Positions 2,093 through 11,814 of a DNA stretch of 13,143 bases are shown here, piece after piece. The stretch comes from an uncultured Nitrospiraceae bacterium. GTDB taxonomy: Bacteria > Nitrospirota > Thermodesulfovibrionia > Thermodesulfovibrionales > Dissulfurispiraceae. The stretch covers positions 1 to 13,143 of the forward strand of contig CAMTVO010000052.1 of NCBI GenBank assembly GCA_947085205.1, given 5' to 3'. The translations under genes and the position numbers were made by a program. Positions within the stretch are counted from its first letter, which is position 1. Each line of letters opens with the position of its first letter. The notes under the pieces were generated by a model. The model did not search any database. It saw only the letters and a list, made by a program, of their open reading frames with translations, and was not told the origin of the DNA.

Positions 2093-2177
2093 TGGAGAGG
2101 GGTAGTGGGAATCGAACCCACCATGGCTTCTTTCACCGTGACTCTGGTTTTGCAGACCAGGCGGGGCGCCAGCCCCA
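2093..2177 (-). pseudogene. 5'-truncated copy of the tRNA-Sec-like tRNA-Cys(GCA)
   Basis: 2093-2128 = 4303-4338 (36/36) and 2141-2177 = 4380-4416 (37/37). Short variable arm CACGG-TGAAAGAAG-CCATG. The 5' 9 nt (acceptor strand) are replaced by transposase sequence. Confidence 0.85.
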
Positions 2178-2826: not shown

Positions 2827-2916
2827 CCCGCCTCCTTTCAAAATAGGCAGTATAGCAATTCCAAAATAGGACATTTCTACTTTGCTCTAATAGGACATTA
2901 TCACTTTGGCGTTACA
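2178..2916 (-). mobile_element. Decayed IS1202/ISNCY-type insertion sequence (left end intact, right end missing)
   Basis: Left end begins TGTAAC at 2916, with two CAAAGT-N3-AATGTCCTATT repeats 24 bp apart (2889-2908, 2865-2884), followed by transposase fragments. No inverted copy of the end is found downstream. Confidence 0.8.
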
Positions 2917-3070
2917 GGTCTAATTTTTCATAGGGCCACGGCCACTTTTTAGTTTCTCCCCCTTTAGCCTCTGCCTTTGATAAAAGGCTGAATTGTGCAA
3001 AGGCAGCTCCGATTGCCAGAGTTCCTGCTCCTGCAATAATCTCCCTCCTCGATAAATTGTTTTCAGACAT
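2912..3070 (-). pseudogene. Tat-exported protein N-terminus truncated by the IS; resembles split-Soret cytochrome c / C_GCAxxG_C_C family precursors
   Basis: Not in the ORF track. SD AGGGGG, then MSENNLSRREIIAGAGTLAIGAAFAQFSLLSKAEA|KGGETKKWPWPYEKLD. The IS end (TGTAA) supplies a stop. Twin-arginine SRREII, AEA cleavage site and WPYxKLD(P) motif. Confidence 0.7.
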
Positions 3071-3129: not shown

Positions 3130-4215
3130 TCAATCTTTCATAGGTTTTATGAACATGAAATAGACCATTGTCCAGTTGCCGAGCACCATGAATATAGTTG
3201 CGACTATGCTTGATAACGCCAGAGAAGAAACGCCTGTCAGTGCATGTCCCACTGTGCATCCTCCTGCTGTTGCAGCGCCAAATCCCATTATAAGGCTGCC
3301 GAAAAATACTCTCATAATCTCATTTGCAGGTGGAGCCTGAAATTTAAACTCACCAAGTCCCCTTGCACTTAGATAAGCGCCCAGTGGAATGCCGAAGATA
3401 TATAATGCGCTCCATGTCCCTTTGAATATCCCCCAGAAGTTAAACATGGGGTCAAATTTTGACATGCTGTCTTTCAGCGTCAATGCAAGAAACGCCTCTG
3501 CAGTTGGACCTGCAGCAGACAGTCCCCTTGTCTGTCCGCCCCAGTAGTTTGACGCCCATAATGCAAATATCAGGATAAATCCGAGCAATGCTCCGGTAAG
3601 CGACCACGAATAGCCCTTTTTAGGACCCTTTGCAAATGGTTTGCCTTTTAAAACTATGGAAATAATTATGGCAGCGATGACGACAATAACCACCCACTTC
3701 ATGCCCTGACCGCCAAATAAATCCCACAGCGCAGGATTGCTTATAGCCCCGTCTTCTTTGCCAATGGATATTTTGATGCTTTTCAAAAACTGATTGACCG
3801 GCTTAAGGGGGCCGTGAATAGTGGCAAGGAGTGAAGATGCAAAGCCGAGCGTCGCAACAAAGGCTGAAACATATCCTTCTCCTGTTCTGTAAACGATCCC
3901 GCTACCGCAACCTCCGGCCATTACAATCCCGATACCGAAAATATATCCGCCTGCAATATTTGCAACTACATTGAACGTTTGACGCCTTAAGCCTTCACCC
4001 ATAAAACCGAGGTCTTCAAGAAAGTTTGCACCGATTATGGCGATTAAAAGGGCAAGAAGATATGAACGGAAGATGGTAAAATCATTTACAAAGATAATAT
4101 CTCTGAAAGCAGAATTCATGCAGTAGCGTCCCCTCTGGAGCACAAAACCGAAAAGAACACCAACCAATAGACCGCTCAGTAAAACCATGATGCTTGCCTG
4201 TCGTATCTCTTCCAT
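3130..4215 (-). CDS. YeeE/YedE family thiosulfate/selenium transporter-like membrane protein
   Basis: Multi-TM protein with LQRGRYCM, GGCGSG and GGCTVGH motifs typical of YeeE/YedE; SD GGAGG. Confidence 0.92.
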   Translation of the reverse strand: MEEIRQASIMVLLSGLLVGVLFGFVLQRGRYCMNSAFRDIIFVNDFTIFRSYLLALLIAIIGANFLEDLGFMGEGLRRQTFNVVANIAGGYIFGIGIVMAGGCGSGIVYRTGEGYVSAFVATLGFASSLLATIHGPLKPVNQFLKSIKISIGKEDGAISNPALWDLFGGQGMKWVVIVVIAAIIISIVLKGKPFAKGPKKGYSWSLTGALLGFILIFALWASNYWGGQTRGLSAAGPTAEAFLALTLKDSMSKFDPMFNFWGIFKGTWSALYIFGIPLGAYLSARGLGEFKFQAPPANEIMRVFFGSLIMGFGAATAGGCTVGHALTGVSSLALSSIVATIFMVLGNWTMVYFMFIKPMKD

Positions 4216-4265: not shown

Positions 4266-4300
4266 AAAAACCACACAAAAATCCCAAGATTTTTTGTGGC
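4266..4300 (-). terminator. Intrinsic terminator-like hairpin immediately after the tRNA
   Basis: Minus strand GCCACAAAAAATC-TTGG-GATTTTTGTGTGGT followed by TTTT; starts 2 nt after the CCA. Confidence 0.6.
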
Positions 4301-4302
4301 AT

Positions 4303-4425
4303 TGGAGAGGGGTAGTGGGAATCGAACCCACCATGGCTCCTTCCATAGGGACAGGCTTATGAAACCTGCTTATACCATGACTCTGGTTTTGCAGACCAGG
4401 CGGGGCGCCAGCCCCATTACCCCCC
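4303..4425 (-). tRNA. Non-canonical tRNA-Sec-like (selC*-like) tRNA-Cys, anticodon GCA, 123 nt
   Basis: Acceptor GGGGGGTA/TACCCCTC (8 bp); D arm TGGGGC-TGGC-GCCCCG (6 bp, 4-nt loop); anticodon arm CTGGT-CTGCAAA-ACCAG; 51-nt variable region closed by CATGG/CCATG; T arm GTGGG-TTCGATT-CCCAC; discriminator U; encoded CCA. Confidence 0.85.
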
Positions 4426-4445: not shown

Positions 4446-4475
4446 AAGATATGATAGAAATATTCAATAAGTCAA
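4446..4475 (-). promoter_or_regulatory. Candidate sigma70 promoter for the tRNA
   Basis: Minus strand TTGACT (4475-4470), N18, TATCTT (4451-4446), about 20 bp upstream of tRNA G1. Confidence 0.4.
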
Positions 4476-4490
4476 ATAGATAATATCTAT
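4454..4490. promoter_or_regulatory. Putative tandem LysR boxes (strong site plus degenerate site)
   Basis: ATAGATAATATCTAT (4476-4490, perfect arms) and ATAGAAATATTCAAT (4454-4468), 22 bp apart, directly downstream of the lysR gene. Confidence 0.65.
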
Positions 4491-4558: not shown

Positions 4559-5446
4559 TTATCTGTTATGTGTTTTTAGATATTCTAAAAATATGTTATA
4601 CACTGCCGGCAATGTTCTCTTTTTATGGGTAACGATATAGAATTTTCTTTTCATCTGAATATCTTTCACCTTTATTTCTTTAAGTGTTTTGAACTTTAAT
4701 TCGTCGGCAACAGATAGCTTAGAGAGTATCGAAATCCCCATGCCGCCTTTTACTGCCTGTTTTACTGCATCTGTTGAGCCGAACACCCCTGAAATTTTGA
4801 TGCTGTCAAGAGCAATGCCTTTCCCTTCTAAAATCCTTTCTGTTTCTCTTCGAGTGCCAGAGCCTTCTTCTCTAAAAATCATGGGTATTTGGGTTAGCTC
4901 CTCCAATGTTACCTTGTCTTTTTTTATCAATGAAGGTGAAGACACCACTATCAACTCGTCTTCCAGAAAGGGGATGAAGTTCATCTGTCCGTTGCTTAGT
5001 TTTGCTCCAACGATACCCATAAGCAATTCATGCCTTGAAACCTTTTCTATTATCACCTTGGAGTCGGATATGACTACATGAAAAGAAACGGAGGGATGTT
5101 GTTTTTTGAAGCTCGCAATAGCGAGGGGCATTAGATATGTGCCGGGAATTGTGCTTGCACCGATAATCAAATCGCCTGTTATTTCTTTTTTAAACTGTCC
5201 GATAATGTCTTTAATGCTGTCTGCTTTCTCTATTAGTTCGATTGCGTGATTATATAAGACATCTGCTTCCTTTGTGGGCATAATAGACCTTCCCAGTCTG
5301 TCAAAGAGTTTGCAGTCAAGTTCTCCTTCTAAAGTTTTTATGTGGTCGCTTACGGTAGGCTGTGTGAGATGTAGTTCCTCCGAGGCTTTTGAAAAGCTTT
5401 TGTTTTTAAATACTGAGACAAATATCCTTAGCTGATGTATGTCCAT
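4559..5446 (-). CDS. LysR-family regulator, CysL-like / selenium-metabolism-associated type
   Basis: HTH SFSKASEELHLTQPTVSDHIKTLE..L...LFDR; IGASTIPGTY and REEGSGTR motifs of the CysL-like substrate domain. Confidence 0.92.
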   Translation of the reverse strand: MDIHQLRIFVSVFKNKSFSKASEELHLTQPTVSDHIKTLEGELDCKLFDRLGRSIMPTKEADVLYNHAIELIEKADSIKDIIGQFKKEITGDLIIGASTIPGTYLMPLAIASFKKQHPSVSFHVVISDSKVIIEKVSRHELLMGIVGAKLSNGQMNFIPFLEDELIVVSSPSLIKKDKVTLEELTQIPMIFREEGSGTRRETERILEGKGIALDSIKISGVFGSTDAVKQAVKGGMGISILSKLSVADELKFKTLKEIKVKDIQMKRKFYIVTHKKRTLPAVYNIFLEYLKTHNR

Positions 5447-7252: not shown

Positions 7253-7291
7253 ATGGCACAGATATTACACACACACACACACACACAATAG
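7253..7291 (+). CDS. Putative leader peptide MAQILHTHTHTQ spanning the (AC)n tract
   Basis: ATG 7253 to TAG 7289-7291. SD is weak. Lies between the promoter and the terminator. Confidence 0.4.
   Translation: MAQILHTHTHTQ
7267..7287. repeat. (AC)10A dinucleotide microsatellite
   Basis: Directly visible perfect tract. Confidence 0.97.
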
Positions 7292-11284: not shown

Positions 11285-11524
11285 ATGTTAAAAACATTAG
11301 ACCGGATAACAATTGATCCTGAAATTTTTCAGGGTCAGCCTTGTATTAGGGGAATGAAAATACCGGTAACTCTTATCCTTAAACTGCTTGCTATCGGCAA
11401 AACACATGCAGAAATAATTGACGACTATCCAGAGCTTGAAGAAGAAGATATAAAGCAGTGCATAGAGTATGCCGCATGGCTTGCCAGTGAACGAAATGTT
11501 GCTATCGCAGGCTCTCATGCATGA
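11285..11524 (+). CDS. DUF433 family antitoxin (VapB45-like)
   Basis: RITIDPEIFQGQPCIRGMKIPV and EIIDDYPELEEEDI...IEYAA; ATGA overlap with the next gene. Confidence 0.9.
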   Translation: MLKTLDRITIDPEIFQGQPCIRGMKIPVTLILKLLAIGKTHAEIIDDYPELEEEDIKQCIEYAAWLASERNVAIAGSHA

Positions 11525-11814
11525 AACTTCTTGCCGATATGCCTATCTCGCCAAAAACAGTTGCACATTTGCGTTCTCTCGGTAATGATGTTTACCGTAT
11601 AAGCGAAAAAGGACTTTATAAGGCAAAAGACCATGACATTATAGAAATAGCCGTCAGAGAAAATAGAGTAATTCTCACAATGGATCTCGATTTCGCAGCA
11701 ATTTTAAAAGGCGGGGATTTTTTGATTAATCTACAGGAACCTTTGCAATTACTTCATCAACGGTTGTTATCCCGTCTCTTACCTTATTCCATGCGCCTTC
11801 AAAAAGAAAAGTGA
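11521..11814 (+). pseudogene. DUF5615 PIN-like toxin (VapC45-like), apparently C-terminally truncated
   Basis: MKLLAD..ISP, D.DII..A..ENRVILTMDLDF. Homology appears to stop at about aa 62; the rest of the frame runs 89 bp antisense into the ATPase 3' end. Confidence 0.7.

Follow-up and report, generated by a model that had tools for sequence, protein, structure and literature searches.

Bacterial tRNA-Sec is described as longer than all other tRNAs, measuring 90-101 nt with an extra stem of 6-9 bp (PMC5330540, PMC3711452), and a class of tRNA-Cys with a similar body has been described. These selC* tRNA-Cys are tRNA-Sec-like, carry U73 and a GCA or UCA anticodon, and include a Nitrospirae type (Mukai et al. 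2017, PMC5389517); the table of that paper holds 52 selC* sequences, none of which, judged by eye, exceeds about 98 nt. Short Thermodesulfovibrio members are labelled tRNA-ReC(GCA) in a supplement table of 2026 (PMC13582414), in which 14 rows contain the family's anticodon-arm motif in genes of 93-97 nt. The GCA-bearing, tRNA-Sec-like tRNA-Cys of Desulfotomaculum nigrificans decodes UGA as cysteine via SelB and does not bind EF-Tu (PMC11415595), and this decoding is SECIS-dependent (PMC13582414). The original study of the D. nigrificans tRNA-ReC is reportedly that of Vargas-Rodriguez et al. 2018. The class is known, and has been studied in few organisms.

This study concerns a gene of this kind in an uncultured Nitrospiraceae bacterium of the order Thermodesulfovibrionales (GCA_947085205.1), located in contig CAMTVO010000052.1, of which the 13,143 nt analyzed are called the window. 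The class and its Nitrospirae type are known already, and what is new, as far as the literature was searched, is a branched form of 118-132 nt. Its conserved variable arm of 48-61 nt widens the known range of size and shape of bacterial tRNAs.

Materials and Methods

Relatives were collected with a search pattern built from the anticodon and T arms of the window tRNA, which matched in 100 of the 317 genomes of the host's order and in at least 120 stretches of GTDB contigs, with records mostly from Thermodesulfovibrionales or Nitrospirota, plus Betaproteobacteria. After merging of duplicates, and with one locus skipped for a cut end, 115 distinct sequences were obtained (94 with U73, 20 with G73, and one out of register). 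The 93 U73 sequences analyzed are these 94 minus the broken second copy of the window. The 20 long forms among them were gathered regardless of the arm, and 8 further long sequences from metagenomes brought the total to 28; these 8 are not independent support, because their search pattern required the arm's letters.

A tRNA gene with a long variable region

Positions 4303-4425 of the window contain, on the minus strand, a genuine tRNA gene of 123 nt with U73 at 4306 and an encoded CCA at 4305-4303. An initial sequence-only reading had proposed a tRNA with GCA, U73, and encoded CCA here, and the cloverleaf was indeed found; that reading did not note that the gene is on the minus strand, that a second copy exists, that selenium genes surround it, or what function has been published for the class. 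According to the cloverleaf and the pairing in relatives, the acceptor stem has 8 bp including one G-U (4425-4418 with 4314-4307), on which a T stem of 5 bp (4331-4327 with 4319-4315) is predicted to stack, giving a 13-bp acceptor-T helix (8/5). The D arm (4402-4415) consists of a 5-bp stem and the 4-nt loop UGGC, and the anticodon arm (4381-4400; GCA at 4392-4390) of 5 bp and a 26:44 pair across one bulged base, while the variable region, between anticodon stem and T stem, measures 51 nt. The predicted fold had a z-score of -2.60, beating 197 of 200 shuffles, with 3 equally stable. The gene scored 55.2 bits with the Rfam tRNA-Sec model (RF01852; gathering cut-off 47, E 4e-09), and ARAGORN called no tRNA anywhere in the window, this one included.

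The pairing is conserved among the relatives. All five T-stem pairs are kept in 93 of 93 distinct U73 sequences, and so is the eighth acceptor pair, which changes from A-U to G-C in three of them. Of the two folds initially offered, 8/5 is thus retained, and 8/4 with an unpaired C is unneeded. The 4-nt D loop stands as well, and the proposed D stem has 6 bp only when a U4416-G4401 wobble is included; this sixth pair is open in the predicted fold and, while pairable in 62 of 92 relatives, is not conserved, in contrast to the other five (91-92 of 92). In six relatives (L010, L074, L095, L102, L082, L014) the D loop is of 8 nt and not of 4, a second deviation from a body like that of tRNA-Sec. 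The 26:44 pair occurs in all 20 long forms (C-G in 17, A-U in 3) and in 73 of 93 sequences overall; the equivalent of position 48, a G in 66 of 93, pairs into the basal stem of the variable arm with C-G to U-A swaps. A pseudogene lacking covarying homologues, which had been named as one outcome that would overturn the assignment, fails as an explanation because covarying long-arm homologues exist.

Assignment to the selC* class

U4306 and GCA are combined in this tRNA with a tRNA-Sec-like body, i.e., a long acceptor, a long variable arm, and an extended anticodon stem, as in selC*/tRNA-ReC. The 7/5 fold and short variable loop of canonical tRNA-Cys are absent, and the 13-bp acceptor branch departs from the 12 bp (8/4 or 9/3) of allo-tRNAs. 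Outside the variable region the gene is identical at 68 of 72 positions to a relative, L073, which equals, letter for letter, one entry of the PMC5389517 table. By these identities it is classed as a long-arm member of the Nitrospirae-type selC* tRNA-Cys (tRNA-ReC), bearing out the resemblance to the class of Mukai and colleagues that had been pointed out at the outset.

With the Nitrospirae-type entries (Thermodesulfovibrio and two metagenome entries; PMC5389517) the window tRNA shares GCA, U73, CCA, the 8-bp acceptor, and near-identical D, anticodon, and T arms, as well as a full Sec apparatus in the host, as reported for the class. It differs in its variable region, which in those entries is a simple stem-loop of approximately 22-30 nt and in the window is branched and of 51 nt (48-61 nt in the long group), and in total length (93-98 nt as listed, compared with 118-132 nt for the long group). 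The window tRNA is about a quarter longer than any listed class member, in agreement with the earlier remark that a 51-nt variable region goes beyond the known class, given the 52 catalogued entries. The suggested comparison with published selC* sequences thereby yielded a class match, and the long arm is missing from the available tables. Five usable long-arm motifs were absent from the available supplement table of PMC13582414, the long cells of which may be incomplete. Literature searches found no report of a branched or >110-nt selC* tRNA; the 2018 tRNA-ReC paper or Figures S1 and S11 of PMC5389517, which lay outside the search, could show one.

The tRNA-ReC of D. nigrificans (PMC11415595, PMC13582414) likewise has a tRNA-Sec-like body, Cys identity, GCA, and a normal tRNA-Sec in the same host, but is of a clostridial type with a short arm; its function has been shown. 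Bacterial tRNA-Sec (RF01852; Aquifex aeolicus structure, PMC3711452) has in common with it the 8/5 fold, the 4-nt D loop, the 26:44 pair with bulge, and the long extra arm, as well as the C15:G20a pair, which is present in most relatives of the window tRNA. In contrast, tRNA-Sec carries UCA and G73 instead of GCA and U73, its D stem of 6 bp and invariant unpaired G48 contrast with five conserved D-stem pairs and a position 48 paired into the variable stem in the window family, and the window arm far exceeds the published stem and tRNA lengths. The GCA-anticodon tRNA-Sec (Aeromonas salmonicida, PMC11415595, and the G73 sequences collected here) also bear GCA on a tRNA-Sec-like body, but retain G73 along with a normal arm (97-98 nt) and serve in the insertion of Sec, unlike the U73 family of the window. 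The 20 GCA/G73 genes (L035 and 19 similar ones; records from Rubrivivax, Rhodoferax, and other Betaproteobacteria) are likely of this published type of tRNA-Sec that recodes sense codons. The deltaproteobacterial selC*-selB*-cysS* system (PMC5389517) shares the tRNA class, but is distinguished by a modified 8/4 fold, an often UCA anticodon, and a dedicated SelB* and CysRS*. The 8/4 fold with bulge 51a is not found in the window family, where the five T-stem pairs are invariably kept, and its earlier mention in connection with this gene pertains to the deltaproteobacterial type. Likewise, no dedicated selB* or cysS* lies beside the window tRNA; the host genome (89.7% complete) contains one SelB and one CysRS, neither of them in the window, and one SelB match was found in each of the 21 genomes with a long-arm gene and one CysRS in each of the six checked.

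Length classes and distribution of the relatives

Variable-region lengths of the 93 sequences are bimodal, with 73 of 22-34 nt, 20 of 48-61 nt, and none between. Long forms (118-132 nt) were found in 21 of the 317 genomes of the order (among the 100 with matches), representing 8 genera and 4 families; such counts are lower bounds, because exact patterns miss variants. All 28 long forms retain an intact anticodon, U73, and CCA, and G008, a closed genome, has no selC* match besides its long form. Other anticodons were sought with an anticodon-tolerant long-arm pattern, which returned GCA in 16 of 16 matches in metagenomes and in 18 of 18 matches in 401 genomes of the phylum, its gap range leaving out the longest arms. 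A phage origin was considered and rejected, viral contigs containing 0 matches to the family pattern. U73/GCA selC*-like genes were also seen in two Chloroflexota records and in Desulfitispora alkaliphila (L079, L110, L048), with a LysR gene or one encoding a TusA domain next to them; Chloroflexota are absent from the phyla for which PMC5389517 reports selC*.

It had been predicted that standard annotation would miss or miscall the gene. ARAGORN missed 10 of 10 long loci and a 109-nt intermediate, and called 5 of 5 short ones; all 8 long forms tested passed the Rfam tRNA-Sec cut-off, as which they are scored. Long genes would consequently be either absent from annotation or miscalled, and it is plausible that the long form has stayed unlisted because ARAGORN misses it.

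In a quick SelB tree search with 41 chosen genomes, one short and one intermediate form were nested among long ones, and the long label needed 6 changes, at least 3 of which were forced by strong branches; the tRNA tree (84 columns) was weak. The tree suggests that the arm extension was lost repeatedly, and because of this nesting and these label changes the extension seems dispensable for the core job of the tRNA. With regard to co-adaptation of SelB, no alignment column at threshold separated the 14 long-arm from the short-labelled hosts.

A branched variable arm

The variable arm (4332-4379, minus strand) is branched according to its predicted fold and to pair counts in relatives. It comprises a basal stem P1 of 6 bp (4379-4374 with 4337-4332), an A-rich linker of 4 nt (4373-4370), a hairpin P2 (4369-4351), and a purine-rich strand of 13 nt with a weak 3-bp hairpin (4350-4338). 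The arm is therefore as long as the sequence-only reading had it, but it is a 6-bp stem bearing a second hairpin and a 13-nt strand and not a simple hairpin. In each of the 20 long forms, none of the six P1 positions is unpaired, and swaps occur (e.g., C-G 13, U-A 6, A-U 1). Beyond P1 the long forms share the 4-nt A-rich linker, P2, and a strand of 12-14 nt with a conserved purine-rich motif at its end; the length of P2 ranges from 14 to 28 nt, and its loop is not conserved. The inner hairpins were not recovered by RNAalifold from a plain alignment because their lengths differ, and pairs were therefore counted from anchored ends; since the ends of P2 were chosen per sequence, its pair counts are inflated. 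In 28 long forms the inserted part folded slightly better than its own shuffles (mean z -0.97), and the 3' strand alone had a predicted fold in 17 and none in 11. From these elements, the arm likely forms a three-way junction, an asymmetric loop being possible instead.

An Rfam search with the arm of 8 loci, at E up to 5, returned no family besides tRNA. The arm contains a Shine-Dalgarno-like AAGGAG, which is missing from several long forms. Mimicry of a SECIS element by P2 was considered and rejected: GG is present in the P2 loop of only 9 of 28 long forms, and not in that of the window, whereas the seven candidate SECIS loops of the host all contain it.

Selenium apparatus of the host

The host genome encodes a canonical tRNA-Cys (C12:5017-5092), a tRNA-Sec(UCA), and, over cut-off, one each of SelA, SelB, SelD, and CysRS, and thereby possesses selA, selB, selC, and selD as expected for hosts of the class. 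SelB was found in 293 of the 317 genomes of the order and is thus nearly universal, which makes its co-occurrence with the tRNA uninformative. In 7 of 11 UGA-interrupted frames tested in the host, the match to a protein family spans the UGA (SelD, formate dehydrogenase alpha, peroxiredoxin, DsbC, ExtKL, rhodanese, and NuoB), and in each of the 7 a hairpin whose loop contains GG lies shortly 3' of the UGA. NuoB, the complex I subunit B (G000:C28:23212-23736, L228), is a candidate selenoprotein, with the in-frame TGA at the first Cys of a Cys-Cys motif and a GG-loop hairpin after it.

Two further arrangements were observed. In the host, cysE and cysS share one stop-free frame of 719 aa (G000:C33:15200-17500, L231), as they do in five of five relatives (G008, G036, G070, G032, G058; 706-727 aa); cysE was named by eye as serine acetyltransferase-like, and a purine-rich stretch precedes the internal ATG, such that a fusion or an internal start is possible. 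In family f12, short-arm selC* genes lie directly upstream of a selB (L216:8858-10735; G167:C20, G168:C15, G180:C228; L039, L060), a pairing that resembles the one described for Deltaproteobacteria. The genomes concerned mostly have two selB matches, and three such SelBs form a branch of their own (support 99).

Genomic neighborhood and promoter

The tRNA lies between an upstream gene for a selenium metabolism-associated LysR regulator (4559-5446, minus strand; NF040786, 311.6 bits, cut-off 250) and a downstream gene for a YeeE/TsuA-like sulfur/selenium transporter of 361 aa (3130-4215, minus; best match NF052577, 241 bits, below the cut-off of 400). Further downstream on the same strand are the first 52 codons of a split-Soret-cytochrome-like/C-GCAxxG-C-C gene (2912-3070; 66% identical over 47 aa to its full-length counterpart in G008), which ends at an insertion sequence, a transglutaminase-like gene (953-1975; named via the Pfam hit PF01841 of relatives), which is a recurring selC* neighbor in the order, and a gene for the selenium metabolism protein YedF (336-944; TIGR03527, 192.1 bits, cut-off 110). 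Up to 1.5 kb upstream, the LysR gene accompanies 9 of the 24 long genes and 19 of the 50 short ones. Over the same distance downstream, the YeeE family of the window occurs with 14 of the 22 long genes and 0 of the 51 short ones, an association that is confounded by kinship.

A sigma-70-like promoter, TTGACT-18-TATCTT, is found at 4446-4475 (minus; 2 such sites compared with 1.5 expected by chance, weak on its own), and a palindrome, ATAG-N7-CTAT, adjoins its -35 hexamer at 4476-4490 (minus). From T-N11-A sites, we take this palindrome to be a putative LysR-type binding site. It recurs in the upstream 130 nt of 18 of the 28 long genes and 25 of the 71 short ones, whereas shuffles gave 0.7 and 1.4, respectively, and a comparison group had it in 0 of 21; 27 of 46 matches are at -51/-52, and TTGAC follows in many relatives. 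In a genome-wide scan, palindromes were mostly scattered, and the full palindrome with TTGAC before a clear target was found at the window site alone. Directly after CCA, an A/U-rich hairpin followed by a T run (4270-4300, minus), which was not called by the terminator scan, is possibly a terminator or processing signal.

A degraded second copy

A second selC* copy is present at 2093-2177 (minus), 2.2 kb away, with a short variable arm (29 nt fewer), one basal-stem mismatch, and no 5' acceptor strand; its identity to the intact gene is 92% for one half and 90% for the other, and it is classed as a pseudogene. It sits at the end of ISNCY-type transposase remnants (2190-2908, minus; N-terminal piece 2874-2680, C-terminal piece from 2661, repeats 2865-2908), and another ATAG-N7-CTAT palindrome (2063-2077, minus) lies upstream of the transglutaminase-like gene. 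Its place, before the transglutaminase-like gene and yedF, is that of the short-arm gene in G070, while the place of the long copy, before yeeE, is that of the long-arm genes in G008 and G036. Judged by these positions, the locus looks like a junction of two arrangements in which the short copy was later destroyed while the long one survived, a conjectural sequence of events.

Proposed function and alternatives

The window tRNA probably serves as a backup during selenium shortage, being charged by CysRS, delivered by SelB, and used to insert Cys at UGA. This function is proposed by analogy with one distant relative, the tRNA of D. nigrificans, because the window tRNA retains the 13-bp helix as well as a basal stem as long as that of tRNA-Sec. 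Ordinary CysRS would charge the tRNA through GCA and U73, and the 13-bp acceptor-T helix together with the basal variable stem would steer it to SelB and away from EF-Tu. In a model of SelB, domain 3 touches the T and extra arms and is oriented by the 13-bp helix (PMC4605307), a placement with which PMC7026636 agrees. On a SECIS hairpin, SelB would then bring Cys to in-frame UGA codons, although the anticodon matches them imperfectly, such that SelD, formate dehydrogenase, and other selenoproteins would still be produced, as Cys forms. As all 21 long-arm genomes have one SelB, the tRNA would share it with Sec-tRNA. The neighboring LysR regulator, to judge by its family name and the palindrome only, could, under selenium shortage, switch on the tRNA and the selenium/sulfur importer. 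Beyond P1, the hairpin and the purine-rich strand that have been added are most likely retained in the mature RNA, and our best guess is that they tune stability or protein contacts (SelB affinity, SerRS exclusion) without being needed for the core job.

It is rather unlikely that, in a working, intron-free tRNA longer than the tRNA-Sec and selC* tRNAs of the cited sources, the branched arm acts as an independent functional module, binding a protein or ligand and thereby setting how strongly Cys competes with Sec for the single SelB, or linking tRNA processing to importer expression. In that case the tRNA would contain its own regulatory domain, and nature would have proved that a variable arm with a three-way junction can travel through the ribosome. 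We consider it unlikely that the long form is mainly regulatory, serving as a leader in the shape of a tRNA or as a decoy for SelB, with an arm that, by binding a protein or ligand, makes yeeE expression depend on the selenium/sulfur status. The skewed occurrence of yeeE beside long genes, a tRNA-yeeE gap of just 21-22 nt in some loci, the bimodal arm lengths, and the sequence conservation of the purine-rich strand would all fit such a role, but the yeeE association is the one confounded by kinship, long forms in two families stand beside other downstream genes, and the arm at 8 loci matches no Rfam cis-regulatory family. Invariably intact decoding and acceptor elements, and the standing of the long form as sole selC* match in G008, likewise speak against it.

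Two other decoding roles appear very unlikely. The tRNA could be serylated and its Ser either converted to Sec or inserted as such, like the GCA tRNA-Sec that recode Cys codons. SerRS recognizes the extra-arm stem (PMC3711452), the host tRNA-Sec has an identical T arm, a long arm with U73 can mark serine acceptors too (Mukai et al., PMC5389517), and GCA-bearing tRNA-Sec do exist (PMC11415595; 20 G73 sequences, mostly Betaproteobacteria records). Against this stand U73 instead of G73 in all family members kept, five conserved D-stem pairs without the free G48 linker of tRNA-Sec, and a host whose selenoprotein candidates use UGA and which has a UCA tRNA-Sec. With an equally low probability, the gene is an extra ordinary tRNA-Cys reading UGC/UGU via EF-Tu, boosting the Cys supply for Cys-rich proteins; its anticodon is cognate for Cys codons, and a deltaproteobacterial selC* tRNA was active in opal suppression in Escherichia coli and recognized by EF-Tu (PMC5389517), but that tRNA has a 12-bp branch compared with 13 bp in the window. 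Moreover, the host already has its canonical tRNA-Cys, the neighborhood is selenium-specific, and the short forms of one family lie directly upstream of a second selB. Slightly less probable still is that the insert is an intron-like or selfish piece removed in processing, or neutral junk in a decaying gene. A short copy without the 29 nt in the same window, and a P2 of variable length with no conserved loop, could be read in this way; however, no fixed-end piece is missing from short forms, self-splicing introns are far larger than this insert, the architecture recurs in 21 genomes of 8 genera, and the broken copy in the window is the short one. The backup tRNA-Cys delivered by SelB is the reading that we prefer.

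A long-arm tRNA of this kind should still, according to the model, meet CysRS, SelB, and the ribosome. The natural long, intermediate, and short forms with near-identical cores amount to a deletion series for the arm tolerance of SelB and the ribosome, which bears on the engineering of tRNAs for Sec and Cys insertion. In addition, the promoter palindrome and the LysR-yeeE-yedF neighborhood are the first handle found on the timing of expression of the backup tRNA.

Minor features of the window

Two low-complexity stretches, at approximately 170-290 (degenerate short repeats after yedF) and 7260-7290 (a TG run), gave weak and meaningless Rfam matches. At 11285-11814, on the plus strand, two small overlapping ORFs of 79 and 97 aa are found, which have no NCBIfam match and by eye have the look of a DUF433/DUF5615-type antitoxin-toxin pair.
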